Position numbers and translations under genes: made by a program. This document shows, piece after piece, positions 7,288-24,178 of a DNA stretch of 64,000 bases (the first letter of the stretch is position 1; each line of letters starts with the position of its first letter). The DNA is from Escherichia coli (GTDB taxonomy: Bacteria; Pseudomonadota; Gammaproteobacteria; Enterobacterales; Enterobacteriaceae). A model generated the notes under the pieces. The model was not told the DNA's origin. It saw nothing but the letters and a program-made list of their open reading frames with translations, and made no database searches. The stretch is taken from NCBI RefSeq assembly GCF_050320075.1, contig NZ_CP190022.1. One strand, given 5' to 3'.

Positions 7288-7790
7288 CTTCGGCTCCCGG
7301 CTGCCTGGCGGCATCCGGTCGTCAGGCCCGACTACGACAGGCAGCTGCTGGCGCACCCGCCAGTCTCCGCCGAACCCGCTGGCGCGGTTTCGGGCTGTCG
7401 CTACGGTCCGATGCGTGAAAACCCGGGCTTGCAGCGACCGTTCCGGTCGCGCCGCCCCTGTCGCGCCGTGACCTGCGCTCCCTGCACACCTGACGGTGTG
7501 TGAGGAAACTGCGCCTGATGGCGCAGCAGTCTTCCCTCCTGCCGCCACCTCTGCGGCCTGTTTCCCGCTGTGGACTTTCCGGGGGGCAGACGTAACCCCC
7601 TCCCGTTCCATCTGTCCAGGGTGAGATGCACCGGCCACAAAATTTTTAGCCATGAACCCGGCTAAAAATTTTGCGTCCGCCCCCGGACAGCTGTCCCGTG
7701 AGGCGGTAAACGGGCCCCCATCGGAAAGGTCCACTGCGGGGAGAAACCCCTGTGAAGTGGACGGCAGGAGGAGCTTTCGCTCCTCTGAAG
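7288..7790 (+). repeat. Frpo/ssi-like single-strand promoter repeat, copy 1 (upstream of ssb)
   Basis: About 500 bp GC-rich non-coding block shared near-identically with 13641-14140 and (3' half) 16717-17045; contains long imperfect palindromes; ends about 60 bp before the ssb RBS. Confidence 0.7.
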
Positions 7791-7854
7791 GGGCACATGA
7801 ACGTCCCGTCGCCGGTATCCGGTTTATCTCACATCTTTCAGTCAGGAGGTTCTT

Positions 7855-8382
7855 ATGAGTGCACGTGGTATCAACAAGGTCATCCTCGTCGGGCGTCTGG
7901 GCAATGATCCGGAAGTCCGTTACATCCCCAACGGGGGCGCAGTGGCAAACCTGCAGGTGGCCACGTCAGAAAGCTGGCGCGACAAACAGACGGGGGAGAT
8001 GCGGGAGCAGACGGAATGGCACCGCGTGGTGCTGTTCGGCAAGCTCGCGGAAGTGGCAGGTGAATATCTGCGCAAGGGCGCGCAGGTCTACATCGAGGGG
8101 CAACTCCGTACCCGTAGCTGGGAAGATAACGGTATCACCCGTTACGTCACTGAAATTCTTGTTAAGACCACGGGCACCATGCAGATGCTGGGGAGTGCAC
8201 CACAGCAGAACGCTCAGGCGCAACCGAAGCCTCAGCAGAATGGGCAGCCACAGAGTGCTGACGCGACGAAAAAAGGTGGCGCGAAAACGAAAGGCCGTGG
8301 ACGTAAGGCCGCGCAGCCCGAGTCTCAGCCGCAACCGCCGGAGGGGGAGGATTACGGGTTTTCAGACGATATCCCGTTCTGA
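7855..8382 (+). CDS. ssb: Plasmid single-stranded DNA-binding protein
   Basis: OB-fold SSB N-terminus ([24 protein letters not shown]), Gly/Gln/Pro-rich linker and acidic C-terminal tail DDIPF; AGGAGG RBS. Confidence 0.95.
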
Positions 8383-8400
8383 CTGGCCTGACTGTGATAA

Positions 8401-8673
<273 letters not shown>

Positions 8674-8736
8674 GAGAGGTGCCGGACGGGAACGCGTCCG
8701 GCAGACATACAACCATCCCGGTCAAAGGAGAAATAT

Positions 8737-10695
8737 ATGTCAGTTACAGAGTCTAAGACAAAAACGGAGCGTAAATCCAGCCGTAAACCTGCAAAAACGC
8801 AGGAAACTGCACTGTCTGCCCTGCTGGCGCAGACGGAGGAAGTGAGCGTGCCGCTGGATTCACTGATTAAATCACCGCTGAATGTGCGCACGGTGCCGTA
8901 TTCTGCGGAGTCCGTCAGTGAACTGGCTGATTCCATTAAGGGAGTCGGCCTGCTGCAGAATCTGGTTGTTCATGCCCTGCCAGGTGACCGTTACGGTGTC
9001 GCCGCAGGTGGTCGCCGACTGGCAGCACTCAACATGCTGGCAGAGCGTGACATCATTCAGGCTGACTGGCCTGTCCGCGTGAAAATTATTCCGCAGGAGC
9101 TGGCGACGGCTGCATCGATGACCGAGAACGGTCATCGTCGGGATATGCACCCTGCCGAACAGATTGCCGGATTCCGCGCAATGGCGCAGGAAGGCAAAAC
9201 ACCTGCGCAAATCGGTGATTTGCTGGGTTATTCGCCTCGCCACGTTCAGCGAATGCTGAAACTGGCAGACCTTGCGCCTGTCATTCTCGATGCGCTGGCA
9301 GAAGACCGCATCACCACCGAACACTGTCAGGCGCTGGCGCTGGAGAACGACACCGCGCGTCAGGTGCAGGTGTTTGAAGCCGCCTGCCAGTCAGGATGGG
9401 GCGGTAAACCGGATGTGCGGGTTATCCGCAACCTGATTACCGAAAGTGAAGTGGCGGTGGCGGGGAACAGTAAATTCCGCTTCGTGGGGGCTGATGCCTT
9501 CTCGCCAGACGAACTGCGCACCGATTTGTTCAGCGATGACGGGGACGGTTATGTCGACCGCGTGGCGCTCGATGCCGCCCTGCTGGAAAAACTCCAGGCT
9601 GTCGCTGAACACCTTCGGGAAGCCGAAGGCTGGGAATGGTGCACCGGACGTATGGAGCCTGTCGGTGAGTGCCGTGAGGATGCCGGAACATACCGCAGCC
9701 TGCCGGAGCCGGAAGCGGTGCTGACGGAGGCGGAAGAAGAACGCCTGAACGAACTGATGGCACGTTACGACGCGCCGGAAAATCAGTGTGAGGAATCCGA
9801 CCTGCTGGAAGCAGAAATGAAGCTGATGCGCTGCATGGCGAAGGTCAGGGCGTGGACGCCGGAGATGCGTGCCGGAAGTGGCGTGGTGGTGTCCTGGCGT
9901 TATGGAAACGTATGTGTCCAGCGTGGTGTGCAGTTGCGCAGTGAGGATGACGTGGCTGACGACGCTGACCGCACGGAACAGGTGCAGGAGAAAGCGTCAG
10001 TGGAGGAAATCAGTCTGCCACTGCTGACGAAAATGTCTTCCGAACGCACGCTGGCAGTCCAGGCGGCACTGATGCAGCAACCGGACAAATCCCTGACACT
10101 GCTGGCATGGACGCTCTGCCTGAATGTGTTTGGCAGCGGAGCGTACAGTAAACCAGCACAAATCAGCCTGGAATGTAAACATTATTCGCTGACCAGCGAT
10201 GCGCCGTCAGGGAAGGAAGGTGCCGCATTCATGGCGCTGATTGCAGAAAAAGCCCGTCTTGCGGCCCTGTTACCGGAGGGATGGTCACGGGACATGACGA
10301 CATTCCTTTCACTCAGTCAGGAGGTGCTGTTATCCCTGCTCAGTTTCTGCACCGCGTGCAGCATCCACGGCGTTCAGACCCGCGAGTGTGGTCACACGTC
10401 ACGCAGCCCGCTGGACACGCTGGAGAGCGCCATCGGTTTTCACATGCGCGACTGGTGGCAGCCGACAAAAGCAAACTTCTTCGGACACCTGAAAAAGCCG
10501 CAGATTATCGCAGCCCTGAATGAGGCAGGATTGTCCGGTGCCGCACGGGACGCGGAGAAGATGAAGAAAGGCGATGCGGCTGAACATGCAGAGTTCCATA
10601 TGAAAGACAACCGCTGGGTGCCTGGCTGGATGTGTGCACCACGTCCACAGACGGATACCACTGAACGCACTGATAACCTGGCTGATGCCGCCTGA
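8737..10695 (+). CDS. ParB-like nuclease-domain protein of the leading region (652 aa)
   Basis: N-terminal ParB/Srx-type domain (VPLDSLIKSPLNVRTV...LLQNLVVHALPGDRYGVAAGGRRLAAL) with a helix-turn-helix segment; AAAGGAGA RBS; conserved position between ssb and psiB. Confidence 0.8.
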   Translation: MSVTESKTKTERKSSRKPAKTQETALSALLAQTEEVSVPLDSLIKSPLNVRTVPYSAESVSELADSIKGVGLLQNLVVHALPGDRYGVAAGGRRLAALNMLAERDIIQADWPVRVKIIPQELATAASMTENGHRRDMHPAEQIAGFRAMAQEGKTPAQIGDLLGYSPRHVQRMLKLADLAPVILDALAEDRITTEHCQALALENDTARQVQVFEAACQSGWGGKPDVRVIRNLITESEVAVAGNSKFRFVGADAFSPDELRTDLFSDDGDGYVDRVALDAALLEKLQAVAEHLREAEGWEWCTGRMEPVGECREDAGTYRSLPEPEAVLTEAEEERLNELMARYDAPENQCEESDLLEAEMKLMRCMAKVRAWTPEMRAGSGVVVSWRYGNVCVQRGVQLRSEDDVADDADRTEQVQEKASVEEISLPLLTKMSSERTLAVQAALMQQPDKSLTLLAWTLCLNVFGSGAYSKPAQISLECKHYSLTSDAPSGKEGAAFMALIAEKARLAALLPEGWSRDMTTFLSLSQEVLLSLLSFCTACSIHGVQTRECGHTSRSPLDTLESAIGFHMRDWWQPTKANFFGHLKKPQIIAALNEAGLSGAARDAEKMKKGDAAEHAEFHMKDNRWVPGWMCAPRPQTDTTERTDNLADAA

Positions 10696-10749
10696 TGAAC
10701 AACCACACCGCCCCGCCGGAGACGGGGCGGCAGCAAGGGAGATACCGTG

Positions 10750-11184
10750 ATGAAAACTGAACTGACCCTGAATGTCCTGCAGACCATGAACGCACAGGAA
10801 TATGAAGATATCCGTGCTGCGGGAAGCGATATGCGCCGTAATCTCACTCACGAGGTGATGCGTAAAGTGGACGCACCGGCTAACTGGATGATGAATGGCG
10901 AGTATGGCAGTGAGTTCGGGGGCTTTTTCCCCGTCCAGGTTCGTTTCACGCCAGCCCACGAACGTTTCCACCTGGCATTATGTTCGCCGGGAGACGTCTC
11001 TCAGCTCTGGATGCTGGTTCTGGTGAATGCCGGTGGTGAGCCGTTTGCGGTGGTTCAGGTACAGCGGCGGTTTGCACCGGAAGCCGTCAGCCATTCACTG
11101 GCACTGGCGGCGTCACTGGATACGCAGGGGTACAGCGTTAACGACATCATCCATATCCTGATGGCGGAAGGAGGTCAGGCATGA
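10750..11184 (+). CDS. psiB: Plasmid SOS-inhibition protein PsiB
   Basis: Translation [25 protein letters not shown]...[14 protein letters not shown] is PsiB as I remember it; AAGGGAGA RBS; track ORF starts at the adjacent GTG 10747. Confidence 0.9.
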
Positions 11185-11900
11185 GCGCACGTTCACGGGC
11201 ACTGATCCCCCTCAGCGCAGAGCAACAGGCCGCCATGCAGGCTGTGGCTGTCACCGAACAACGTCGTCGTCAGGGACGCACACTTTCAGCATGGCCTTAT
11301 GCCAGCGCTTTCTTTCGCTGCCTGAATGGCAGTCGCCGGATTTCGCTGACCGATCTCCGCTTTTTTGCCCCTGCGCTGACGAAGGAGGAATTTCATGGCA
11401 ACCGTCTCCTGTGGCTGGCTGCCGTGGATAAACTGATTGAAAGTTTTGGTGAAGTCTGTGTTCTTCCCCTGCCATCCGATGCGGGGCATCGTCTGTTCCC
11501 GTCCGTTCCTTTTCGTGAAGGTGAGCGTCGTCGTCAGAAAACCACGCTGACAGAGCAGAAATACAGCCGCCAGCGGGAACGTGAGGCAGAACGACGGGAA
11601 CTGGAATACCAGACATGTTTTGCTCAGGCGCAGATTGACCTTGCGTTTCATACTCCCGCCACGGTCGGAAGCTGGTTGTCCCGCTGGTCTGGTGTTGTTG
11701 AGGAGCATGATCTGGAAACGATTTTCTGGGGGTGGTGCGGGCGTTTTCCGTCACTGTCATCATTTGACCGGTTTTTCTGGCAGGAGGAACCACTCTGGCG
11801 GCTGATTTTTGAAGCCGGTGAGGCCGGTCGTGGTGCACCGGTACAGGTACGTGCACTTGAGCAGTGGATGATCCCGAACAAGCTGGAGAACGTAATATGA
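11181..11900 (+). CDS. psiA: Plasmid SOS-inhibition protein PsiA
   Basis: 239-aa product immediately downstream of and overlapping psiB stop (ATGA); sequence and position typical of PsiA. Confidence 0.85.
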
Positions 11901-12493
11901 TGAAATCAGACGAAAAATATCAGGTTCCCGTGTGGATGCGACCTCTGTTGCCGTTGCTCTGCAACACCGGGGGGAACGATCCGGAAGAACTGCTGAATGA
12001 TACAGCAACCACTGTCAGTGCGAATGTTGTCCGTTATGTTCTGATAGTTGCTGTGCGGTCGCAGGTTGATCTGCTGCAGATTCTGTACAGGAAAGGGCTG
12101 TTGCGCACAGAGATACCAGGTGGCTTTTCACCGGAAGAAGCGCAGGCACTCCTGGATAATCTGGTGCGCAGCCATATCAGCAGGGCGCTGTCGGGTGAGC
12201 GAATGGCAGCCCGTGACAGAAATGCCGATCTGGCCTGGATTCGACAGCAACTGGTCGATGCCGCCTGGTTTGTCCGTGCCACACTGGAGGCGCATGGGAT
12301 GGGCGTCGGAAATGAGAGTCCCCCTGCTCAGCCGGAGACAATGCCGGACATACAGACACGGGAACTGGTGATGTTGATCAAGCGACTGGCATCATCGCTG
12401 AAAGCGGTGAAACCGGACAGTTGTGTGGTGCGTGAAGCGCAGGACTGGCTGCGCGACAGAAAACTTGTGGGCATCACGGATGTTCTTCGGTGA
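11897..12493 (+). CDS. Hypothetical leading-region protein (198 aa), translationally coupled to psiA
   Basis: ATG 11897 overlaps the psiA stop (ATGA) with GGAGAA RBS inside psiA; no family recognised. Confidence 0.55.
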   Translation: MMKSDEKYQVPVWMRPLLPLLCNTGGNDPEELLNDTATTVSANVVRYVLIVAVRSQVDLLQILYRKGLLRTEIPGGFSPEEAQALLDNLVRSHISRALSGERMAARDRNADLAWIRQQLVDAAWFVRATLEAHGMGVGNESPPAQPETMPDIQTRELVMLIKRLASSLKAVKPDSCVVREAQDWLRDRKLVGITDVLR

Positions 12494-12957
12494 ACCAGTG
12501 GAGGTATGCTTGAGGGGCAGGGACATGCCGGTCATGATCGTTTCGTTCCAGGGGTGGTCTGGAGATCATGCGGCGTGTCCTCTGCTCTCGCCGGAATAAG
12601 GACGTCGCCGGCGGCTCCGCTTTTACCCGGCCATGCGGGGCATGGCCTTGTGGGTTTTCAGGTATGAAGCCATCGTGTCGTGTGCGGGCTGTGCCGTGCC
12701 TCCATCGTAGCCGGGCTTCTGTGGGCGGGATGCAAGGTAAGATGAACCGCTGCGGTCACCCGGTCCCTCCTTCCCGTCTGCCGTGATTTTCCGGTCGTTC
12801 ACCCGCTCAGATTTCGCGGTCTCACCCTCCAACTCCCGTCAGCCGTGCGCGTCGGGCTGCGGCTTTCCTTGCGCCCTTGCATCCCTGCAGGCCCGGCAAA
12901 GATGGAGGCACGGCACCGCCCGGTGTCGCAGAACATGTGACTATGGAGGATTCGGGA

Positions 12958-13458
12958 ATGTCTGTTGTTGCACCTGCTGTATACGTTGGAACCTGGCACA
13001 AATATAACTGCGGAAGCATCGCCGGCCGCTGGTTTGACCTGACCACGTTTGATGATGAACGCGATTTTTTCGCCGCCTGCCGTGCCCTTCACCAGGATGA
13101 AACCGATCCGGAACTGATGTTTCAGGATTATGAGGGATTCCCGGGGAATATGGCCTCTGAATGTCATATCAACTGGGCCTGGGTTGAAGGCTTCCGCCGG
13201 GCACGGGATGAAGGCTGCGAAGAGGCTTATCGTCTCTGGGTGGATGATACCGGTGAGACGGATTTTGACAGCTTCCGCGATGCCTGGTGGGGCGAGGCTG
13301 ACAGTGAGGAGGCTTTTGCGGTTGAGTTCGTCAGTGATACCGGCCTGCTGGCTGACGTGCCGGAGACGGTGGCGCTCTATTTTGACTATGAGGCGTATGC
13401 GCGGGATTTATTCCTGGACTCCTTCACCTTTATTGACGGTCATGTGTTCCGTCGGTGA
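12958..13458 (+). CDS. ardA: Antirestriction protein ArdA (DNA mimic inhibiting type I restriction-modification)
   Basis: Translation MSVVAPAVYVGTWHKYNCGSIAGRWFDLTTFDDERDFFAACRALHQDE...DSFTFIDGHVFRR matches ArdA; very acidic; GGAGG RBS; track ORF extends upstream to 12877. Confidence 0.9.
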   Translation: MSVVAPAVYVGTWHKYNCGSIAGRWFDLTTFDDERDFFAACRALHQDETDPELMFQDYEGFPGNMASECHINWAWVEGFRRARDEGCEEAYRLWVDDTGETDFDSFRDAWWGEADSEEAFAVEFVSDTGLLADVPETVALYFDYEAYARDLFLDSFTFIDGHVFRR

Positions 13459-13640
13459 TTTACTCCCCCGCTCCGGCGGGGGTATGGCCTGCCGGGCCGC
13501 CGGAAAACCCTGGCAGGCTTACGCCTGCCTGAAATACAGGAGGGCCGCGCCTGCGGCGCTGCCCTTCCTGCCCGTCATGGTGTGAGGCATTTTTCTGTTT
13601 TGTCGTTTCTGTTGTTCTGATGCCCGGAGGCGGGGACACC

Positions 13641-14140
13641 CTTCGGCTCCCGGCTGCCTGGCGGCATCCGGTCGTCGGCCCGACTCCGACAGGCAGCTGC
13701 TGGCGCACCCGCCAGTCTCCGCCGAACCCGCTGGCGCGGTTTCGGGCTGCCGCTACGGTCCGATGTCTGAAAAACCAGGCCTGCAGCGACCGTTCCGGTC
13801 GCGCCGCCCCTGTCGCGCCGGAAACGGCGCTCCCTGCACACCTGACGGTGTGTAAGGCCACTGCGCCTGATGGCGCAGTTGTCTGCCCTTCCGCCGCCAC
13901 CCCTGCGGCCTGTTTCCCGCTGTGGACTTTCCGGGGGCTGAAGCGGCCACAACACGTCTCAGCCGTCCAGGGGAAGATGTACCAGCCACAAAACTTTTTG
14001 CCGCAGGCGTCAAAAACTTTTGCGTCTGCCCCCGGACAACTGCCCCGTGCCGTGGCAGTCGCTGCCCCATCGGAAAGGTCCACTGCGGGGAGAAACCCCG
14101 AAGAAGTGGACGGCAGAAGGGGCTTTCGCCCCTCCGGGGA
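13641..14140 (+). repeat. Frpo/ssi-like single-strand promoter repeat, copy 2 (upstream of the 14188 ORF)
   Basis: Near-identical to copy 1 over about 500 bp; ends about 50 bp before ATG 14188. Confidence 0.7.
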
Positions 14141-14187
14141 ATAACCGGTCGGCCCGGCGACCTGATTCAGCAGAAGGAGACGTTTTC

Positions 14188-14622
14188 ATGACAGTCAGCA
14201 GCACGATTTCCGTTTTTTGCCGAGACGGGGTGTTCCGTACCGTTTACTGCCACCTGCACGGTGAGCCGACCTGGAACGGTCGCATCCTGCATACCCACTA
14301 TGCCACCGGTCAGCTGGCCGAAGCCCTGGTTGAACACGGAGATATCCGTTGCCTCGGTCCCCGTTGCGACAAACCCGCCGGGCATACGCTTCAGAACCCG
14401 GTGGACGGTGTGACGGCTTATTACGGACGTGACAGTGGTTTCCGGATGGACAGTGAAGCGCGTGAGTACCGCTCTTTCAGGGAGGCTATTGCCACTGAAA
14501 GCACAGAAGAGGTGCGCTTCCATTATGTGTTCATCGACGGCTACTGGAAGGTGATGTACCGCACGCCGGAAGGCTGGAAGATGAAAGCGCTCGCGCTGGC
14601 ACTGCGTCGCTGTCCGGAATGA
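14188..14622 (+). CDS. Hypothetical leading-region protein (144 aa), first gene after repeat copy 2
   Basis: GAAGGAGA RBS 7 nt upstream of ATG 14188; Cys/His-rich (CHLHGEP...CLGPRCDKPAGH); no family recognised. Confidence 0.6.
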   Translation: MTVSSTISVFCRDGVFRTVYCHLHGEPTWNGRILHTHYATGQLAEALVEHGDIRCLGPRCDKPAGHTLQNPVDGVTAYYGRDSGFRMDSEAREYRSFREAIATESTEEVRFHYVFIDGYWKVMYRTPEGWKMKALALALRRCPE

Positions 14623-14625
14623 AAA

Positions 14626-14653
14626 AAAGCAGGGCGATAAACCCTGCCTTTCT
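14626..14653 (+). terminator. Hairpin terminator between the 14188 and 14715 ORFs
   Basis: GCAGGGC-GATAAA-CCCTGC stem-loop followed by CTTTCT. Confidence 0.4.
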
Positions 14654-14714
14654 CCGCCGGCGCTTCCCCGTACGGAAGTCCGGCATCTCATTCACTAACT
14701 ATGGAGATTATGCT

Positions 14715-14981
14715 ATGAGGCCATCAATTATCTTCGCAACCGCCGAGTATGTAAAGCGTCTGCGTGAAGAGTGCCGGCGGGAGAACAAACCCCTGCACCG
14801 CCATACCCGCTTCAGACGCCAGGAACTGGCACCGGATGAGATTAACCCGGACGTCCTGGCGATGGGCGGTCATATCGCCAGACGCTGCAGTGAGCGGAAG
14901 CGGGTGCGTATCCCCGCCATGAAAGTCAGCGAATGGGGCCACCTGCTCCGCGCGCTTGAAATTGAGCGGGTCTGCCACTGA
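14715..14981 (+). CDS. Hypothetical small basic protein (88 aa)
   Basis: ATG 14715 with GGAG 8 nt upstream (track ORF 14619-14981 includes an unlikely upstream extension); Arg/Lys-rich. Confidence 0.45.
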   Translation: MRPSIIFATAEYVKRLREECRRENKPLHRHTRFRRQELAPDEINPDVLAMGGHIARRCSERKRVRIPAMKVSEWGHLLRALEIERVCH

Positions 14982-15045
14982 TTAACCCTTGCCGTCTGCC
15001 TGTGCAGGCGGCAGGATACGTTCAGACATCTCACCAGGAGGAACC

Positions 15046-15984
15046 GTGAGTAAGAAGAAAACCACCACGACGCCCACGCCGCATGATGCCGCGTTCCGGT
15101 CGTTCCTGGCGAACCCCGACGTCGCCAGAGATTTTCTGGAACTGCATCTTCCGGCGGAGTACCGGCAGTTGTGCGACCTGTCCACGCTGAAGCTGGAACC
15201 CGCCACCTTTGTTGAGCCGGACCTGCATCAGTACGCCAGCGATATCCTCTGGAGTGTGAAAACCACCGGGGGTGAAGACGGCTATATTTATACGCTCATC
15301 GAGCACCAGAGCACCGAAAATCTGTACATGCCTTTCCGCATGTTACGTTACAGTGTGGCGGCGATGCAGAGACATCTGGAGCAGCACAAAACATTGCCAC
15401 TGGTGATTCCGGTGCTGTTCTATCATGGTGAGCGCAGCCCGTACCCGTACAGCATGAACTGGCTGGACTGTTTTGAGGATCCGGCGCTTGCGGCTAAAAT
15501 ATACACAAAGCCGTTTCCGCTGGTTGATATCACTGTCGTTGATGACAATGAAATCATGAACCATCGCCGGATGGCCGCACTGACGCTGCTGATGAAGCAT
15601 ATCCGCCATCGTGACATGATGGAGCTGCTGGACAAACTCCCGCAGGTCATGGTGGAAATTTCAGACGAGCAGGTGCGTGTTCTGATTCATTACATCGTTA
15701 ACGCAGGGGACTCTGTATCACCGGAATTTATGCGGGCGCTGGCTGAGCGTCTGCCGCAGCATGAGGATAAACTGATGACTATTGCCGAACGTCTTGAGCA
15801 GCAAGGAATACAGAAAGGAATACAGCAGGGAATACAGCAGGGAATACAGCAGGGAATACAGAAAGGCCGCATGGAGGAGAAGCAGGATATTGCGCGTCAG
15901 CTTCAGAAAACGGGAATGCCATCTGCACAAATCTGTCAGATCACCGGACTTTCCGAAGCTGAACTGAAGAACATCACTCACTGA
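15046..15984 (+). CDS. Rpn-family (YhgA-like, PD-(D/E)xK) recombination-promoting nuclease with C-terminal QGIQ-repeat tail
   Basis: N-terminal TPTPHDAAFRSFLANPDVARDFLELHLP...YIYTLIEHQS is the Rpn/YhgA signature; AGGAGG RBS 6 nt upstream of GTG 15046 (track ORF starts at 14989). Confidence 0.8.
   Translation: MSKKKTTTTPTPHDAAFRSFLANPDVARDFLELHLPAEYRQLCDLSTLKLEPATFVEPDLHQYASDILWSVKTTGGEDGYIYTLIEHQSTENLYMPFRMLRYSVAAMQRHLEQHKTLPLVIPVLFYHGERSPYPYSMNWLDCFEDPALAAKIYTKPFPLVDITVVDDNEIMNHRRMAALTLLMKHIRHRDMMELLDKLPQVMVEISDEQVRVLIHYIVNAGDSVSPEFMRALAERLPQHEDKLMTIAERLEQQGIQKGIQQGIQQGIQQGIQKGRMEEKQDIARQLQKTGMPSAQICQITGLSEAELKNITH
15805..15864 (+). repeat. Five tandem 12-bp units (GGAATACAG + AAA/CAG) inside rpn encoding (QGIQ)n
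   Basis: Perfect tandem 12-mers 15805-15816, 15817-15828, 15829-15840, 15841-15852, 15853-15864. Confidence 0.9.
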
Positions 15985-15993
15985 TGAGAACCA

Positions 15994-16023
15994 CAAAGCC
16001 CGGCAAAATGCCGGGTTTTTTTG
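15994..16023 (+). terminator. Rho-independent terminator after rpn
   Basis: AAAGCCCGGCA-AAA-TGCCGGGTTTTTTTT hairpin plus T-run right after the rpn stop (15982-15984). Confidence 0.65.
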
Positions 16024-16046
16024 TCAGCAGGAGCAGAGCAAACAGC

Positions 16047-16229
16047 ATGACGATTGCAGAACGTCTTATACAGAAAGGTTTCGACGAAGGTTTTAAGAAA
16101 GGTGCGCTTGAAGTGGCGCGGGAAATAGCCTGCCGGCTTCGGGATATAGGCTGGTCGCCGGAACGGATTCAGGAGGTCACGGGACTTTCCGGTGAAGAAC
16201 TGAAAAAACTGTTTCCTGATGAGCTGTAG
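16047..16229 (+). CDS. Small stand-alone protein (60 aa) paralogous to the Rpn C-terminal tail
   Basis: Own AGGAG RBS after the rpn terminator; MTIAERLIQKGFDEGFKKG...EVTGLSGEELKKL parallels the tail of the upstream Rpn (MTIAERLEQQGIQKG...QITGLSEAELKNI). Confidence 0.55.
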   Translation: MTIAERLIQKGFDEGFKKGALEVAREIACRLRDIGWSPERIQEVTGLSGEELKKLFPDEL

Positions 16230-16259
16230 CCTGGCATTCTGCCAGGCTGTGAATCACGC

Positions 16260-16511
16260 TCACACATCCTCTGCCGTTTCCCCCAGTTCATTTTCCAGTC
16301 GCCTGATGATATCTGCCTTACGCATCCCCTGCATGTGAGGCAGCAGGTCACGGACTGAAAGAGCCTGGGTGGTCCTCCAGACGGTGACGTCCACCTGTTC
16401 CGCATTTTCCCAGGCGTGCCATGTTCTCTGCGTCACGCCAAATTCTCTGGCCGCTTTTTCGCGTGACCAGAGCATGCTTTTTCGCCAGATTCGCAGTTCC
16501 CAGCCGGTCAT
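16260..16511 (-). CDS. Small helix-turn-helix transcriptional regulator (83 aa)
   Basis: Product contains an HTH-like segment (AAREFGVTQRTWHAWEN); sits directly next to two palindromic operator-like sites. Confidence 0.55.
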   Translation of the reverse strand: MTGWELRIWRKSMLWSREKAAREFGVTQRTWHAWENAEQVDVTVWRTTQALSVRDLLPHMQGMRKADIIRRLENELGETAEDV

Positions 16512-16527
16512 AAAACACCTTTGAAAA

Positions 16528-16611
16528 AGTGAAAAAACTTCACTTTATTTTATCATCATAATCATCAAATCAGCGCGATAAATAAGTGTGAAAAAGTGAA
16601 GAAATTTCACT
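16528..16611. promoter_or_regulatory. Two operator-like palindromes (AGTGAA-N5-TTCACT) in an AT-rich promoter region
   Basis: AGTGAAAAAACTTCACT at 16528-16544 and AGTGAAGAAATTTCACT at 16595-16611, each embedded in AAAAGTGAA...TTCACTTTT; immediately upstream of the minus-strand HTH gene start (16511). Confidence 0.45.
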
Positions 16612-16716
16612 TTTTTTTGATTGTGGGTGTCGTGCTGTTTTCTCTGTTTTCACCTGTGCGGGAGTGGTGTGCCAGTGACCACCACATGCCATTGTTGTGC
16701 CGTCGTTTTTCTTCAG

Positions 16717-17045
16717 TCGCGCCGGATGCGGCGCTCCCTGCACACCTGACGGTGTGTAAGGCCACTGCGCCTGATGGCGCAGCTGTCTCTGCCTGTCTGC
16801 CGCCGCACTGCGGCCCGTTTTCCGCAGACGGACTTTCCGGGGGTACATACACGACCACATCCCGTTTCAGTCGTCCAGGGGAGAGATGTACCAGCCACAA
16901 AACTTTTTGCCGCAGGCGTCAAAAACTTTTGCGTCTGCCCCCGGACAACTGCCCCGTGACGTGGTGAGCGTCCCCCGTCGGAAAGGTCCACTGCGGGGAA
17001 ATCCCCGAAGACCCGGACGGCAGAAGGAGCTTCGCTCCTCCGGGA
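16717..17045 (+). repeat. Frpo/ssi-like single-strand promoter repeat, copy 3 (5'-truncated; upstream of the 17089 ORF)
   Basis: Matches the 3' 330 bp of copies 1 and 2; ends about 45 bp before the 17089 start. Confidence 0.7.
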
Positions 17046-17088
17046 AATGACCTGGCTGACCCGGCAGTCGTGACGATGAGGAGACAAT

Positions 17089-17940
17089 GTGATGAATCAG
17101 ACTTTACCCACTGCTGACCTGAATACTGCCGGCACGACAGATGTTATTCCGTCTGTGGCTATCGACCGCATCATCGCGCAGCGTAACGAAGGTATTGCAC
17201 TGTTCATGCAGGCGATGGAATGCCTGGCGACAGCGCGCAGGATTCTGCTCGATGCTTCCGGTGACATTTTTCTCTACGGGTTTGAAGACTGCGTGACTGA
17301 TTCCGTTCGTCGCATGGATAAACCGGAAGAAGCGAAAAGGAATATCACCCGTCTTGCCGACCGGAAAATCTGGGACCGCCTGATGACAGATACGGGCATG
17401 TACACCTTCATGAGTTCATGCCAGCGTGATGAGTGGAACAGCCAGCTGATGAGCGACACCTGTCCTGAAATCATCCTGGACAATGTACTGGCAACATTCC
17501 GCCATCTGAATGCCAGCAAAATGCAGACATTTGAACAGGGACTGATTGATGTCTACCGGAAATTGTCATGGGATTACAGAACCAATAATCCCTGCCGTCT
17601 GGGCAAGAGAATCATTATTGAAAACCTGCTGTACCGCTGGAGTAACGGGCGTGTGACGCTGGACTGCAGCGGGCGGGAGGCACTGGATGACCTGGTACGT
17701 CCGTTTTATCTGCTGGATGGGCGCAACATTCCTGACTTCCGGAGCAGCATCGGGGCGCAGTATGGTGAATTTCTCGGGAACGGCGACAATGTCGGTAAGC
17801 TGTTAGAAGGGGAATATTTTACGGTGCGTGGCTACCAGAAAGGGACCGTACACATTGTCTTTAAGCGTTCTGACCTTGTTGAAAAACTGAATGATATTAT
17901 TGCACGGCATTATCCTGGTGCATTGCCGCCACGAGTCTGA
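17089..17940 (+). CDS. Hypothetical leading-region protein (283 aa)
   Basis: GAGGAG RBS; followed by a clean terminator; no family recognised. Confidence 0.6.
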   Translation: MMNQTLPTADLNTAGTTDVIPSVAIDRIIAQRNEGIALFMQAMECLATARRILLDASGDIFLYGFEDCVTDSVRRMDKPEEAKRNITRLADRKIWDRLMTDTGMYTFMSSCQRDEWNSQLMSDTCPEIILDNVLATFRHLNASKMQTFEQGLIDVYRKLSWDYRTNNPCRLGKRIIIENLLYRWSNGRVTLDCSGREALDDLVRPFYLLDGRNIPDFRSSIGAQYGEFLGNGDNVGKLLEGEYFTVRGYQKGTVHIVFKRSDLVEKLNDIIARHYPGALPPRV

Positions 17941-17948
17941 TTAAAAAG

Positions 17949-17984
17949 AAAAGCCCTGGTATTTATGCCGGGGCTTTTTTTTCT
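17949..17984 (+). terminator. Rho-independent terminator after the 17089 ORF
   Basis: AAAAGCCCTGG...CCGGGGCTTTTTTTT hairpin with T-run. Confidence 0.6.
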
Positions 17985-18025
17985 GTAATCATCATAATCT
18001 CAGAACATGATGTGACATTGTCACA

Positions 18026-18361
18026 TCAATTGTTGTTCATATCGATGCCATCTTTTCTGCCTGAATCTGTCTTTTTAGGTGCTGTTTTAGAGGAAGAACG
18101 GCGGGATGGTTTTTTCGATTCTGCTTCCCGAATAATGTCACGAAGTGCCTTCTCTCCTACTTCATACCCTGCATTTTTGAGCGTGTCACGAACATCTGCC
18201 AGTGTATAACCCTTTGTCCTTACCAGGACAATGATGTCATCACGAATGGCATCAAGAAAATCACGCAATGTTTTCCGTTGAGCGGTGAGGTCCGGCAATT
18301 CCGATAAGGCAGATTTTGCCAGCTGGATGTCATCATCTGAGTAAAATTTTTTAGAAGCCAT
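18026..18361 (-). CDS. Hypothetical small protein with basic C-terminal tail (111 aa), divergent from oriT
   Basis: ATG at 18361 with GGAGAG about 10 nt upstream (track ORF starts at GTG 18367); C-terminus KKPSRRSSSKTAPKKTDSGRK suggests nucleic-acid binding. Confidence 0.5.
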   Translation of the reverse strand: MASKKFYSDDDIQLAKSALSELPDLTAQRKTLRDFLDAIRDDIIVLVRTKGYTLADVRDTLKNAGYEVGEKALRDIIREAESKKPSRRSSSKTAPKKTDSGRKDGIDMNNN

Positions 18362-18399
18362 TAGCACTTTCTCTCCGTTTCATGTTGAAGTCTGATTTT

Positions 18400-18590
18400 A
18401 TCATCAAAAACTGACTCCTGGCAGGGCTGCGCCCTGCCTCTGCCGTCTGCATAAGACTATGATGCACAAAAATAACAGGCTATAATGGCCTGAAAAACGG
18501 GACAGGATGTGGGAATGTCGGACCGCGCACGCGCACTCAGACATTCCCCACCTGGTCAGGGCTTTGCCCCGACACCCCGGTAAGGAGCAG
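18400..18590 (-). other. Origin of transfer (oriT), IncI/IncP-like, with predicted nick core on the minus strand
   Basis: Immediately upstream of nikA; minus-strand reads ...GGGGAATGTCTGAGTGCGCGTGCGCGGTCCGACATTCCCACATCCTG/TCCCG with the ATCCTG nick-core motif (plus 18503-18508) and a 12-bp-arm inverted repeat (18511-18522 / 18537-18548). Confidence 0.75.
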
Positions 18591-18593
18591 ACC

Positions 18594-18926
18594 ATGAGTG
18601 AGAAGAAAACCCGAACGGGCAGTGAGAACAGGAAGAGAATTGTAAAATTCACGGCGAGATTCACGGAGGATGAGGCTGAAATCGTAAGAGAAAAAGCGGA
18701 GTCAAGTGGACAGACGGTTTCAACATTTATACGAAGCTCTTCACTGGATAAGGTGGTTAACTGCCGTACTGACGACCGTATGATTGATGAGATTATGCGT
18801 CTTGGCCGCCTTCAGAAGCATCTGTTTGTGGAGGGAAAACGCACTGGTGATAAGGAGTATGCAGAGGTTCTTGTTGCCATTACTGAATATGTCAATGCTC
18901 TGCGAAGAGACTTAATGGGACGCTGA
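18594..18926 (+). CDS. nikA: Relaxosome accessory protein NikA (ribbon-helix-helix, oriT-binding)
   Basis: AAGGAG RBS; product (MSEKKTRTGSENRKRIVKFTARFTEDEAEIVREKAESSGQTVSTFIRSS...RLGRLQKHLFVEGKRTGDKEYAEVLVAITEY) matches NikA. Confidence 0.85.
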   Translation: MSEKKTRTGSENRKRIVKFTARFTEDEAEIVREKAESSGQTVSTFIRSSSLDKVVNCRTDDRMIDEIMRLGRLQKHLFVEGKRTGDKEYAEVLVAITEYVNALRRDLMGR

Positions 18927-18937
18927 GATAACTGCTG

Positions 18938-21658
18938 ATGAATGCCATTATTCCGCACAAAAGACGTGACGGCAGGTCTTCCTTTGAAGACCTGATTGCG
19001 TACACGTCTGTGCGGGATGATGTGCAGGAAAATGAGCTCACAGAAGACAGCGAAATCAAGAGTGATGTCCCTCACCGCAACCGTTTCAGACGGCTTGTTG
19101 ATTATGCAACACGCCTGCGTAACGAAAAATTTGTCTCCCTGATTGATGTGATGAAAGACGGCAGTCAGTGGGTAAATTTCTATGGCGTAACCTGTTTCCA
19201 TAACTGCAATTCACTGGAAACAGCTGCTGAAGAGATGCAGTACAAGGCGGACAAAGCTGTTTTTTCCCGTAATGATACAGACCCCGTTTTCCACTACATT
19301 CTTTCCTGGCCTGCGCATGAAAGCCCGCGTCCTGAGCAGCTTTTTGACTGTGTGCGTCACACACTGAAATCTCTTGAACTCTCAAAACATCAGTACGTGG
19401 CTGCCGTTCATACGGACACGGATAATCTGCATGTGCATGTTGCCGTGAATCGTGTACATCCTGAAACTGGTTATATTAACTGGCTTTCCTGGAGCCAGGA
19501 AAAACTCAGTCGTGCATGCCGTGAACTTGAACTTAAGCACGGATTTGCGCCGGATAATGGCTGCTTTGTGCATGCACCCGGCAACCGTATTGTGCGCAAA
19601 ACAGCGCTGGTACGTGAGCGCCGTAATGCCTGGCGACGCGGGAAAAAGCAGACGTTCAGGGAATATATTGCGCAGATGTCGATTGCCGGGCTGCGTGAAG
19701 AGCCCGCACAGGACTGGTTATCTTTGCATAAACGGCTGGCCAGTGATGGTCTGTATATCACGATGCAGGAAGGGGAACTGGTGGTGAAGGATGGCTGGGA
19801 CAGAGCGCGGGAAGGTGTTGCACTCAGTTCGTTCGGACCGTCATGGACAGCTGAAAAACTGGGGCGGAAACTGGGGGAATATCAGCCTGTACCGACAGAT
19901 ATTTTCAGTCAGGTGGGGACACCCGGTCGTTATGATCCGGAAGCCATAAACGTGGATATCCGGCCGGAAAAAGTGGCAGAAACGGAGAGTCTGAAACAGT
20001 ACGCCTGTCGTCACTTTGCTGAACGCTTACCGGAAATGGCGCGAAATGGTGAACTGAAAAGTTGCCTGGCTGTACACCGTACTCTGGCAGAGGCGGGATT
20101 ATGGATGGGGATTCAGCACGGGCATCTGGTACTGCATGATGGATTTGATAAACAACAGACACCAGTACGTGCAGACAGTGTGTGGCCGTTAATGACGCTG
20201 GATTATATGCAGGATCTGGATGGTGGATGGCACTCTGTACCGAAGGATATTTTTACTCAGGTTATACCCGAAGAACGATTCCGGGGACACAGTATTGGCA
20301 CTCAGGCTGTCAGCGATTACGAATGGTATCGCATGAGGATGGGCACTGGTCCACAGGGTGCCATAAAGCGTGAACTGTTTTCCGATAAGGAAAGTCTGTG
20401 GGGATACGCTCTTATTCAGTGCAGGAGCCAGATTGAAGAGATGATAGCTGGCGGGGATTTCAGCTGGCAGGCATGTCATGAGATGTTTGCGCGTAAAGGG
20501 CTTATGCTGCAGAAACAGCATCATGGTCTCGTGATTGTGGATGCGTTTAATCATGAACTGACACCGGTGAAGGCCAGCAGTATCCACCCGGATTTGACGT
20601 TATCCCGGGCCGAGCCTCAGGCCGGGCCATTTGAAATTGCGGCTGCAGATATTTTCGAACGGGTGAAGCCTGAATGTCGCTACAATCCGGAACTTGCTGC
20701 CAGTGATGAAGTGGAGCCCGGCTTCCGGCGCGATCCTGAGCTGCGTCGTGAGCGCCGTGAAGCCCGTGCAGCTGCGCGGGAAGATTTGCGTGCGCGTTAT
20801 CTTGCATGGAAGGAACACTGGCGTAAACCCGATTTACGTTACGGCGAACGGTTGCGGGAAATTCATGCTGCCTGCCGTCGTCGCAAGGCTCATATCCGCG
20901 TGCAGTTCCGGGATCCACAATTGCGTAAACTGCATTACCATATTGCAGAAGTGCAACGTATGCAGGCGCTGATCAGACTGAAGGAAAATGTCAGGGAAGA
21001 GCGACTGGCGCTGATGGCGGAGGGTAAGTGGTATCCGTTGTCCTACCGGCAGTGGGTGGAACAACAGGCGGCGCAAGGCGACAGAGCTGCAGTGTCACAG
21101 CTCCGAGGCTGGGATTATCGCGATCGTCGCTCGCGTAATAAGGATAAAAGACGCACAACTAATGCTGATCGTTGTGTCGTTCTCTGCGAACCCGGAGGAA
21201 CGCCACTTTTTAATAATGTTGCAAAACTTGAAGCTCGTCTTCAGAAAAATGGAAGTGTTCATTTCAGGGATACGCGGACAGGAAAAAATGTCTGTACGGA
21301 TTACGGAGATCGGGTTGTGTTCTACCATCACACGGACCGAAATGAACTGGCAGAGAAGCTTGATTTAATTGCGCCAGTTCTGTTCAGCCGCAACGGAAAG
21401 CTTGGTTTTGAGCCGGAAGGTTCATACCAGCAGTTTAATGATGTGTTTGCAGAAATGGTGGCCTGGCACAATGCAGCGGGAATAACCGGAAACGGACACT
21501 TCACCATTACTCGTCCGGACGTGGATTTGCACCGTCAACGCAGTGAGCAGTATTACCGGGAATATATCAGACAGCAGACCCGTTTATCGGAGAGCCATGA
21601 TGATAATTATACGTTACGGCAGGAGAAAACATGGGAGCCACCATCACCTGGAATGTAA
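18938..21658 (+). CDS. nikB: Relaxase NikB (MOBP family)
   Basis: 906-aa product with the MOBP metal-binding motif HTDTDNLHVHVAVNRVH near the N-terminus; directly downstream of nikA. Confidence 0.9.
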   Translation: MNAIIPHKRRDGRSSFEDLIAYTSVRDDVQENELTEDSEIKSDVPHRNRFRRLVDYATRLRNEKFVSLIDVMKDGSQWVNFYGVTCFHNCNSLETAAEEMQYKADKAVFSRNDTDPVFHYILSWPAHESPRPEQLFDCVRHTLKSLELSKHQYVAAVHTDTDNLHVHVAVNRVHPETGYINWLSWSQEKLSRACRELELKHGFAPDNGCFVHAPGNRIVRKTALVRERRNAWRRGKKQTFREYIAQMSIAGLREEPAQDWLSLHKRLASDGLYITMQEGELVVKDGWDRAREGVALSSFGPSWTAEKLGRKLGEYQPVPTDIFSQVGTPGRYDPEAINVDIRPEKVAETESLKQYACRHFAERLPEMARNGELKSCLAVHRTLAEAGLWMGIQHGHLVLHDGFDKQQTPVRADSVWPLMTLDYMQDLDGGWHSVPKDIFTQVIPEERFRGHSIGTQAVSDYEWYRMRMGTGPQGAIKRELFSDKESLWGYALIQCRSQIEEMIAGGDFSWQACHEMFARKGLMLQKQHHGLVIVDAFNHELTPVKASSIHPDLTLSRAEPQAGPFEIAAADIFERVKPECRYNPELAASDEVEPGFRRDPELRRERREARAAAREDLRARYLAWKEHWRKPDLRYGERLREIHAACRRRKAHIRVQFRDPQLRKLHYHIAEVQRMQALIRLKENVREERLALMAEGKWYPLSYRQWVEQQAAQGDRAAVSQLRGWDYRDRRSRNKDKRRTTNADRCVVLCEPGGTPLFNNVAKLEARLQKNGSVHFRDTRTGKNVCTDYGDRVVFYHHTDRNELAEKLDLIAPVLFSRNGKLGFEPEGSYQQFNDVFAEMVAWHNAAGITGNGHFTITRPDVDLHRQRSEQYYREYIRQQTRLSESHDDNYTLRQEKTWEPPSPGM

Positions 21659-21877: not shown

Positions 21878-24178
21878 TCAGTATTTTTCGTCAGTTGTTG
21901 GTTGTGCTCCACATGATTTCTGGGGATGATCATTATTTATTGTCTGCGATTTATTATTTTCAGCGACCGGTAACAGTATCTCCAGGGGGAGCAGGGTATT
22001 CAGAATCGCCTTCACTGAAGGTATATCTTCAGGACCGGAGTGTTCCTCTTCCGGACGATTCAGTGTGATATAACATACCCGGCGTTCTTCCCTGGTTGTG
22101 TTATTGATAGTGTGCACAGCCTTTTTCCACAGTTCGTTTGCCCGGGATTCGATATCTGTATCATATTGCGGAAGCAGATCCAGTGATGTCTGCGCTGTTG
22201 CCAACCGGCGCTGGAATGTATCAATGATACGGTAAGGCTCTGTACGGTTTTTACGACGTTTACGGGATGGTTTTGCTGTCAGTACACCAATAATGCTGCT
22301 GACATGCTCCGGTGTGGGAAAACGGCGCTGCACTGTCCTGGGGACAAGACGGCGGAGACGTTCCAGTCGGGGGGCTTCAACAGAGATATAACGGTTGATG
22401 ACCACTGGATCACTGTCGCAACTTTTTTCGCTGTCCGGAATATACACAGAGGCTGACGGCACCACATCCCCCTGGAAAACGGTAAAGAATTCACCGGCAT
22501 TCAGTTTGATTAAATCCTGCACGTTGATTTTGCTTTCCATCTGGATTGTGATCTGGTTACCGTCCACCCAGGACTCTCCCATCACACCATCGTGGCGCTG
22601 CAGGCTGCCCATTCTGGCGCGGGCCTCTTCACCGGCGGCATTTTTCACCGTCCTTGCTGTTTTGTCGTCACTGACAATGCGTCCGGCGAATTTGGTGCCG
22701 GCGTTCTGCATCAGCGTGGCGGTGTTGGTGGCAGAAGTCTGCCCTTCGATTCGCTCCTGATCCTGCGCCGTCATTATCAGGGAGAACTCCAGTGAACGTA
22801 CCTGGGTGGCCTCCACTGCAATGCGGTCCGTGTAGTAGGCACCGACTTCGTCAAGGATACAGATATAGGGGAAGCGGCCTTTGTATTTTTTGACTTCCAG
22901 GGTCTGTGCATCTGTGCCTTCCAGGCGGTAGCCCAGGTCACGGGCGAGGATCATGCTCTGCTGGGTGATGAACATACGACCGAGTGCCGACGTGGTATGG
23001 GCTGATGTGTCCAGTGCGGGGATCATCACAATCAGAATTCGGTCGCTGTGGATACTGTCGCGAATATCGATGTCGCCGGCATCTGCCGCAAAGACGTCCC
23101 CGAAGGTTTCGGCAAAGGTTGTGAACGTTTCCGAGAACTGACCGGAGAGATAAGCATGCTGTTTACGGGGCTCCTCAGTCCAGGCTGACGGCGTTCTCAC
23201 CAGTGACATATCGAATCCCGGGACATCCTGCAGGTAGTTTCGCAGTGGTGCGATAGCTTCTTCCGGCCACTGGTCATCAAGGCCACGGCAATAGAGTTTT
23301 GCCATCCCTTCCAGCGTCATATGTTCCCGTAACATATGCAGGGACATGGTTTTACCTTCCCGGACGCACCAGAATTTTGTGCCAAAGACCAGGGCCTTGT
23401 TCATGGCTATCGCCCGTGACTGCCATTCTCCCCCCTGAACGTTCTGGGGCAGCATGGACTGCATGGTTTCGGCGGTGAAGGCTTCGGTGCTGAATGCGAA
23501 CGGGTTCCAGGTGTTTGACTGTGGGCGGGATTTATCGCCACTCTGAATGACTTCACTGCGGGATTTTCCGCCGTTCATGAAGTTGATGACCTCGATATCA
23601 TCCTCCCGGCCAAAACGTCGGGAGAGATACCAGATTGTCCTCGTGGTATCGTTCTGTGCCTTTCCGTCAACAAAGGTAAAGCCTCTTCCCCAGCAGAGCG
23701 GGTTGAGCAGCCAGGCAAAGGTGGTTTCTGTTTTACCGCCACCGGTGGTGGAAAAAAATATGATATGCCGGGTGAGGTCATCCATGCTCAGCCAGAGCTC
23801 ACGACCGATATCGTTGATACGGCGGTAACCGACATAAAAAATCCCCCGTGCGGGGGATGTTTCATCTGCTTCATACTGAAACAGGGTAGGCCAGAAGCTG
23901 AAGAGGCTTCGCCTGACCTTTCTGTCCTGGGAGGGGTCATCAAGGCTGAGCGTCATGGGCATACGCAGGGGGCATCGCCAGCGTTGCAGCGTGAATATCA
24001 CGGAGGTGACCAGGGTGAACAGCAGACAGACAGGAAGGGCCAGTGGCCATATCAGGGCCGTAATGATACTGCCAGCCAGACACAGACCAATGATGTTCAG
24101 GTTGTGCAGTGCATTCCACAGCGGGTTTCCCCAGGCCGTGCGGTGTATGAGGTCAGGATTAACGTGATGCTGGCTCAT
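21878..24178 (-). CDS. trbC: Type IV coupling protein (DotL/IcmO-like; TrbC of IncI-type systems)
   Basis: 766-aa product with N-terminal transmembrane segments and Walker A FFSTTGGGKTE; convergent with nikB; last gene of a three-gene minus-strand operon. Confidence 0.7.
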   Translation of the reverse strand: MSQHHVNPDLIHRTAWGNPLWNALHNLNIIGLCLAGSIITALIWPLALPVCLLFTLVTSVIFTLQRWRCPLRMPMTLSLDDPSQDRKVRRSLFSFWPTLFQYEADETSPARGIFYVGYRRINDIGRELWLSMDDLTRHIIFFSTTGGGKTETTFAWLLNPLCWGRGFTFVDGKAQNDTTRTIWYLSRRFGREDDIEVINFMNGGKSRSEVIQSGDKSRPQSNTWNPFAFSTEAFTAETMQSMLPQNVQGGEWQSRAIAMNKALVFGTKFWCVREGKTMSLHMLREHMTLEGMAKLYCRGLDDQWPEEAIAPLRNYLQDVPGFDMSLVRTPSAWTEEPRKQHAYLSGQFSETFTTFAETFGDVFAADAGDIDIRDSIHSDRILIVMIPALDTSAHTTSALGRMFITQQSMILARDLGYRLEGTDAQTLEVKKYKGRFPYICILDEVGAYYTDRIAVEATQVRSLEFSLIMTAQDQERIEGQTSATNTATLMQNAGTKFAGRIVSDDKTARTVKNAAGEEARARMGSLQRHDGVMGESWVDGNQITIQMESKINVQDLIKLNAGEFFTVFQGDVVPSASVYIPDSEKSCDSDPVVINRYISVEAPRLERLRRLVPRTVQRRFPTPEHVSSIIGVLTAKPSRKRRKNRTEPYRIIDTFQRRLATAQTSLDLLPQYDTDIESRANELWKKAVHTINNTTREERRVCYITLNRPEEEHSGPEDIPSVKAILNTLLPLEILLPVAENNKSQTINNDHPQKSCGAQPTTDEKY

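Follow-up and report, generated by a model that had tools for sequence, protein, structure and literature searches.

Which function does the short segment upstream of nikA serve in the 64,000-nt stretch of DNA analysed here (denoted the window), and, if it is a conjugative transfer origin (oriT), which strand is cut and which genes reach the recipient first? The original prediction had proposed an oriT in this segment, nicked on the minus strand. We consider it very probable that the region is the oriT of an I-complex (IncB/O/K/Z-type) plasmid, and the data support the assignment of the site to a NikA/NikB (MOBP) relaxosome. It is an ordinary, previously described variant of the B/O/Z/pO113 class, whose anatomy holds nothing unusual.

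Anatomy of the site upstream of nikA

The anatomy of the oriT, its homology, its conservation and covariation, and the orientation of the surrounding genes were read directly in the analysis. The features referred to throughout are listed below; a slash within a sequence marks the position of the nick.

7288-18502, minus (transferred) strand: leading region, predicted to enter first; genes mostly on the plus strand
7855-8382, plus strand: ssb, in the leading region
12877-13458, plus strand: ardA, in the leading region
18026-18361, minus strand: yggA-like gene, the first on the leading side and oriented divergently from nikA, with oriT in between
18494-18582, minus strand: functional oriT unit, bounded by the two oriT copies of the relaxase-less plasmid pBuzz
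18498-18511, minus strand: nick region, CACATCCTG/TCCCG; identical in R64 and invariant in 11/11 aligned I-complex oriTs
18503-18508, minus strand: ATCCTG core hexamer, as originally predicted
18511-18528, plus strand GGGAATGTCGGACCGCGC: repeat A, the nick-proximal arm, 8 nt from the predicted nick; predicted NikA binding site
18531-18548, plus strand GCGCACTCAGACATTCCC: repeat B, the distal arm, pairing with repeat A at 15/18 positions
18555-18562 and 18566-18573, no strand assigned: second inverted repeat, GTCAGGGC ttt GCCCCGAC, 7/8 pairs; arms identical to those of R64
18582-18587, plus strand: ribosome-binding site of nikA, AAGGAG; start codon ATG at 18594
18594-18926, plus strand: nikA, ribbon-helix-helix (RHH) accessory protein of 110 aa (PF21983, Pfam NikA-like, 3.4e-19; NF041264, NCBIfam MobA; PDB 2BA3)
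18938-21658, plus strand: nikB, MOBP relaxase of 906 aa (PF03432, MobA/VirD2 relaxase domain, 2.7e-30; NF041893, TraI_MobP_relax, 6e-122)
21878-24178, minus strand: trbC, beyond nikB

The site had been placed upstream of nikA, and nikA followed by nikB is indeed found directly downstream of it. The structure matched by the nikA product, PDB 2BA3, is the solved N-terminal ribbon-helix-helix domain of R64 NikA (residues 1-51), and NikB retains the HTDTDNLHVHVAVN histidine motif and the N-terminal Tyr22, both of which are conserved with R64 NikB. The locus displays the hallmarks of MOBP-type origins of the RP4/R64 kind, namely the nick consensus, a repeat 5' of the nick and an adjoining MOBP relaxase gene that is transferred last. 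Its position directly upstream of nikA-nikB, tail to tail with trbCBA, is that of I-complex oriTs, and it agrees with the definition of such an oriT given in the legend to Fig S1b of PMC3817090.

Two other readings of the frames in this segment were rejected. A nikA start at the ATG at 18507, which would yield a 139-aa ORF, was discarded in favour of the 110-aa NikA, which together with the ribosome-binding site at 18582-18587 fits all relatives; an 86-aa minus-strand ORF at 18404-18664 was likewise dropped in favour of the annotated 110-aa NikA.

On the other side of oriT, the yggA-like protein and its R64 counterpart, encoded at the same position, share 97% identity; in pESBL this position bears the name YggA. 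The pCTX-M3 homologue of the yggA-like gene, Orf35, represses the nikA/nikB transcripts (PMC6112013). In public records the yggA-like gene is listed as 'molybdopterin-guanine dinucleotide biosynthesis protein MobC', apparently a name transferred by mistake. On the leading side, between oriT and this gene, lies a perfect 8-bp inverted repeat, GGCAGGGC tgc GCCCTGCC (18420-18438), the left arm of which is without one G in R64.

The ATCCTG core had been predicted at 18503-18508, and the plus strand does read CAGGAT there, that is, ATCCTG on the minus strand. From 18498 onwards the plus strand reads CGGGACAGGATGTG GGAATGTCGGACCGCGC AC GCGCACTCAGACATTCCC CACCTG GTCAGGGC TTT GCCCCGAC ACCCCGGTAAGGAGCAGACC ATG, and the minus strand across oriT reads ...GGGAATGTCTGAGTGCGC-GT-GCGCGGTCCGACATTCCC-ACATCCTG-TCCCG; the immediate minus-strand context of the core (plus-strand positions 18498-18511) is CACATCCTGTCCCG. 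The octamer CATCCTGT, on the minus strand at 18502-18509, fits the MOBP nick consensus (C/T)ATCCTG(C/T) (PMC3772185). By homology with R64, the minus strand is predicted to be cut in ACATCCTG/TCCCG, between the G opposite 18503 and the T opposite 18502, and ACATCCTG provides exactly 8 nt between this predicted nick and repeat A. The R64 work of Furuya and Komano from 1991 and 1995 reportedly places the nick between G and T at a distance of 8 bp from the 17-bp repeat, and is said to find NikB still attached to the 5' end after nicking. In pCTX-M3, mutation of the corresponding ACATCTTGT abolished oriT function (PMC7440800), and in pESBL, transposon insertions that hit the equivalent 83-bp oriT were assigned to the class affecting transfer.

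The site was compared with its relatives in a set of 11 diverged oriTs (IncI1, B/O, K2/Z, Igamma/K1, Citrobacter and Leclercia plasmids, and pBuzz). In 11/11, including lineages with differing promoters and flanks, the 14-nt nick region was invariant.

For the long inverted repeat, 12-nt arms had been described at 18511-18522 and 18537-18548. A brute-force scan recovered exactly these arms, with pairing at 11/12 positions. The location thus stood, but not the length, which is 17-18 nt: the repeat extends to imperfect 18-nt arms (18511-18528 and 18531-18548) that are separated by 2 nt and complementary at 15/18 positions (83%), the non-pairs including T.C at pair 10 and G.G at pair 13. In the 11 oriTs, changes on both sides were seen at pairs 2, 3, 4, 5, 6, 9, 10 and 11, which make up 8 of the outer 12 pairs, and 88% of the cells were Watson-Crick in register compared with 18-31% when the partner was slid by 1-3 nt. 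The pairs were counted by script from the fixed outer ends because in the MAFFT alignment the 2-nt indel of the R64 loop had fallen within an arm. The joint change of both arms across the relatives shows that the pairing is under selection.

Folding of the transferred strand (92 nt) gave a predicted energy of -26.7 kcal/mol (z = -5.2) and the two expected hairpins; 0 of 200 shuffles were as stable. In the predicted fold, CCTG of the nick core (18503-18506) pairs with CAGG beyond repeat B (18552-18555), which lengthens the stem and puts the nick at the base of the hairpin; as neither segment varies, covariation is silent on this pairing.

Taken alone, the ATCCTG hexamer means little. The octamer YATCCTGY occurs 18 times on the two strands of the window where 8.9 are expected, a count that none of 100 shuffles reached; only the copy at 18502-18509 has a neighbouring repeat. 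Inverted repeats of comparable quality are found at about 19 places in the 64 kb versus about 3 in resampled sequence. The copy at 18502-18509 is the only YATCCTGY in the window that adjoins such a repeat, at 8 nt, and it does so directly upstream of nikA-nikB. The combination of nick consensus and repeat is unique in the window and far from chance, because this is the sole repeat-flanked site, its nick region is invariant while the arms covary, the fold is strong and a second, R64-like repeat is present.

Known relatives and functional extent

The 221 bp from 18380 to 18600, which include the nikA start, are 100% identical in >200 PLSDB plasmids, mostly conjugative/MOBP/MPF_I, and at lower stringency the oriT region was matched in 1380/5426 complete E. 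coli genomes. An oriT of this kind is a textbook feature, found in a quarter of complete E. coli genomes; the RefSeq E. coli records under the oriT match carry no annotated oriT feature, and an Rfam scan of window positions 1-25000 at the gathering threshold gave no match. Among the 100% matches to the 221-bp query are NC_022996 (pO26-CRL125) and NC_022992. According to the pO26-CRL125 paper, its 85-bp oriT is identical to that of the IncB plasmid p3521; two repeat sets were identified there by comparison with R64, of which the 8-bp repeats are those of R64 and the 17-bp repeats differ because NikA differs (PMC3817090). Since NC_022996 is 100% identical and its oriT is described in that paper, the exact variant seen in the window is already in the literature. 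The oriT is identical in pO26-CRL125 and pO111-CRL115 (IncZ) and in the IncB plasmid p3521, but these plasmids differ from the present one in the mosaic around it; the window also shares its repeat and its NikA with pO113-EH41.

R64/ColIb-P9 (IncI1) is the experimentally characterised prototype, and its oriT likewise lies upstream of nikAB. The two origins align base for base. The nick region, the 8-nt spacing and the arms of the 8-bp repeat are identical, the 8-bp repeat region as a whole is 91% identical, and the flank to the left of the nick 97-98%. In contrast, the long repeat is only ~60% identical, with both arms changed (GGGAATGTCGGACCG vs GCAATTGTAATACCG), and the loop is 2 nt shorter in the window; the 17-bp repeat of R64, GCAATTGTAATACCGTC / GACGCTATTACAATTGC, has one mismatch. 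R64 NikB is 72% identical to the window NikB. R64 NikA is 60% identical at the protein level (nikA DNA, 62-69%), with most of the divergence in the N-terminal DNA-binding half. Because the long repeat and the NikA N-terminus both differ, the oriT-NikA pair of the window probably belongs to a different specificity class from that of R64. The pair falls outside the R64 (IncI1) class by its NikA beta-strand (RIVKFTARF vs KTVVRTLRF) and by the inner triplet of the repeat (CGG vs AAT).

A more distant counterpart is the origin of RP4/RK2 (IncP), the MOBP archetype with TraJ/TraI. There, too, the ATCCTG core is on the transferred strand and an inverted repeat adjoins it on the 5' side; the proximal arm is occupied by an accessory DNA-binding protein, and the relaxase gene is transferred last. 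The systems differ in that the repeat is unrelated, the nick sequence is TATCCTG/C rather than CATCCTG/T, the accessory proteins are others and transfer uses MPF_T instead of MPF_I.

The extent of the functional unit is delimited by pBuzz, a 1982-bp rolling-circle plasmid that has no nikAB or other relaxase. It carries two inverted copies of window positions 18494-18582 at 95% identity (82/86 and 81/85), in which the nick region and repeat A are 100% identical; three base changes affect the loop and the distal arm, and the spacer of the 8-bp repeat is TTC in place of TTT. The span of 18400-18590 originally given for the oriT therefore marked the right site but overstated its extent, the functional unit being about 18494-18582 as judged from the pBuzz copies. 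pBuzz is reported to be mobilised efficiently, in trans, by a co-resident B/O plasmid (Moran & Hall 2019). Mobilisation of copies that are 95% identical amounts to a nearly direct functional test of the oriT, in effect already done. Membership of the B/O/Z/pO113 oriT-NikA class also predicts which relaxase-less, pBuzz-like small plasmids the present plasmid can mobilise.

These comparisons bear on whether the site could be an inactive relic, either a mismatched pair of NikA and repeat or a decayed oriT in a mosaic plasmid that no longer transfers. The window is mosaic, its best 22-kb matches being just 94-97% identical, and the repeat is imperfect. The same imperfections, however, are carried by the mobilisable copies in pBuzz, and the identical 221 bp, with the nikA start, recur in >200 plasmids typed as conjugative; moreover, NikA and the repeat are unchanged together in pO113-type, K2/Z and B/O plasmids, and nikA, nikB and trbC are intact ORFs. 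We find a relic hardly credible.

A different proposal would make the repeat chiefly a NikA operator that controls the nikAB promoter, with DNA processing starting elsewhere. RHH proteins are typically repressors (PMC6514445), and NikA gave weak matches to models of RelB-type antitoxins and TraJ regulators. In addition, there is an invariant TATAAT at 18481-18486, immediately to the left of the nick, with the repeat positioned between this hexamer and nikA. On the other hand, there is no other site in the window that combines nick consensus and repeat, and pBuzz is mobilised although it has the 85-bp unit only and no nikAB. The nick region, too, is invariant even though promoters and flanks differ between lineages. 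Autoregulation could add to the oriT function without replacing it, and as a substitute for that function the operator seems to us very unlikely.

The TATAAT itself lies 16 nt to the left of the nick and is unchanged in 11/11 oriTs, even in the Citrobacter and Leclercia plasmids with diverged flanks. It is a candidate -10 element for the nikAB promoter; a good -35 element to go with it was not seen. A sigma-70 promoter scan gave no convincing plus-strand promoter for nikAB and only a weak minus-strand candidate for the yggA-like gene. A 5-bp terminator-like stem is located at 18476-18492.

Transfer polarity and the leading region

It had been claimed that the minus strand is nicked and that the DNA to the left is transferred first. 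The base-for-base alignment with R64 and the identical nick region support this claim. Because a nick after the minus-strand ATCCTG leaves a 5' T opposite 18502, lower coordinates are predicted to enter first and nikAB last, in keeping with the general rule that relaxase genes enter last (PMC11541004). The polarity is thereby fixed, with the minus strand transferred and the DNA left of 18502 leading, and how the anti-defence genes of the leading region are read depends on it.

The second part of the claim, that the anti-defence genes are plus-sense and templated by the transferred strand, was borne out as well: ssb, psiB, psiA and ardA are all on the plus strand, and because they are coded there, the transferred minus strand is their template. 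Leading-region anti-defence genes are known to be oriented for transcription off the incoming single strand (PMC11541004). Besides these four genes, the plus strand of the leading region carries a parB-like gene, rpn and a DUF4942 gene. Two leading-region genes, neither of them an anti-defence gene, are on the minus strand, namely an HTH gene at 16260-16511 and the yggA-like gene at 18026-18361. With ssb, psiB, psiA and ardA on the plus strand to the left of a minus-strand nick, the segment has the leading-region architecture of conjugative plasmids, and the layout of leading region, oriT, nikAB and trb is that of the I-complex, the same as in R64.

The leading region also contains two direct repeats of ~500 bp, one just upstream of ssb (7288-7785) and one downstream of ardA (13641-14134), which are 83-95% identical in parts. 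Each holds a strong hairpin, for instance one with a perfect 12-bp stem at 7638-7673. The repeats are placed like the Frpo single-strand-promoter repeats R1-R3 of pO26-CRL125 (PMC3817090).

The exact nick, the binding of NikA and the roles of the hairpins at this oriT are predicted from homology with R64 and RP4, and the following course of events can be proposed. NikA, as an RHH dimer, would bind the nick-proximal arm, repeat A (18511-18528); in R64, NikA reportedly binds this arm only, according to Furuya and Komano in 1995. Bound NikA would position NikB, the MOBP relaxase, on the conserved nick region at a distance of 8 nt, and NikB would cut the minus strand in ACATCCTG/TCCCG (18503/18502) and remain covalently bound to the 5' T. 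The minus strand would then be pumped 5'->3' into the recipient, bringing in the yggA-like gene, ardA, psiA/psiB and ssb, with nikAB last. As the template of the plus-strand genes for anti-defence and SOS inhibition, the incoming strand could permit their early transcription. The long repeat and the 8-bp repeat would fold as hairpins in the transferred strand and probably serve as the recognition structures for closing (termination), and the repeat and the NikA N-terminus would form a matched specificity pair, unlike that of R64.

NikA-repeat correspondence and a proposed junction at the nick

We sorted six NikA types against their repeat A sequences. Positions 9-11 of repeat A track the NikA beta-strand one-to-one across the six types, as in the following pairs.

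CGG with IVKFTARF: the window
ATA with [NT][VI]L[IR]AVRF
AAT with TV[VI][RK]TLRF: R64
TAT with AISRPVRL: pCERC7-like small plasmids

Positions 7-8 (GT) and 12-15 (ACCG) are constant across the NikA types. Positions 2-6 vary within one NikA type, and a change there is always compensated in the other arm. This is seen in pSCU-106-1 (locus L005, 526-617, compared with window 18495-18586), where NikA is 100% identical to that of the window and positions 2-6 are changed from GGAAT/ATTCC to CATTT/AAATG, which are again complementary.

Such changes could mean that the long repeat is selected mainly as a single-strand hairpin for termination by NikB and less as a duplex binding site for NikA, which would read only a few inner bases of one arm. 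Because the pSCU-106-1 repeat differs under an identical NikA, complementarity appears to be selected independently of the NikA sequence, and the strong folding of the transferred strand as single-stranded DNA points in the same direction. We also count in favour of this reading a report by Furuya and Komano from 2000 that, judging by its title, is said to give both R64 repeat sets a role in termination. However, hairpin selection is compatible with NikA binding and so does not truly exclude it; the covariation of positions 9-11 with the NikA beta-strand argues for sequence-specific protein reading of arm A, and PMC4743918, referring to Furuya & Komano 1997, names the nick region together with repeat A alone as the essential R64 core. 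That selection of the hairpin is the main cause is a real possibility, although to our mind it stops short of being probable. The pattern as a whole suggests that the inner part of repeat A is what NikA reads; the outer part would be selected for pairing, presumably as a termination hairpin.

A further regularity concerns the boundary between the nick and the repeat. Left of it (18362-18510) the window is 96-98% identical to R64, and right of it (18511-21658) the identity is 55-75%. Similarly, E. coli I-complex lineages that share only 64-76% identity in nikA agree at 96-99% over the 400 bp to the left of the nick. The reverse case is provided by two of the compared loci (L006 and L009), in which the repeat and nikA are 99-100% identical and the left flanks only 69%. 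The nick/repeat boundary thus behaves as a junction between a leading-region module and a relaxosome module that would have had different histories. Relaxase-mediated strand exchange between co-resident heterologous oriTs that share the nick region would explain such a junction; an alternative is ordinary homologous recombination in the conserved leading region. For R64, NikB-dependent oriT recombination is documented.

Taken together, these patterns, which rest on about a dozen sequences, allow a joint reading in which the tasks of the repeat would be split between a NikA code for initiation and selection for a hairpin, and in which the nick/repeat boundary would be an evolutionary junction. 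We put this reading forward tentatively and regard it in its entirety as rather doubtful. In the literature searched we found no statement of the split-task or the junction pattern; Moran & Hall 2019 or the R621a genome paper may cover them.

A scan of genome contigs with a nick-to-CTGGTCA pattern (19 specified bases) returned 72 loci, about half of which were chance matches in unrelated genomes, as expected. Eleven loci (L027, L031, L042, L043, L054, L057, L059, L070, L077, L082 and L085) are on short contigs (0.4-2.3 kb), often of low coverage, which share the same R64-like oriT mimic, GCAAATGTAATACCGTCACCCGCGACGATATTCCGTTTGC, one of them with a one-base variant. These contigs occur in assemblies of unrelated taxa, among them Flagellimonas, Clostridium, Bradyrhizobium, Corallococcus, Rhizobium, Micromonospora, Acinetobacter, Mycobacterium, Halobacillus and others, and they most likely represent contamination by an enterobacterial small plasmid of ~1.5 kb. 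An 8.3-kb contig of a Lachnospiraceae MAG (L020, CAAFVW010000016.1) encodes an identical NikA and has, at 396-454, a window-type oriT that differs by one base in repeat A; the contig is probably a misbinned fragment of an enterobacterial plasmid. Finally, a K2/Z-type I-complex oriT is present on an IncF (MOBF/MPF_F) plasmid (L013, NZ_CP129254.1, 498-589) with no annotated nikA adjoining it; it is possibly an orphan oriT that would allow mobilisation by an I-complex helper.
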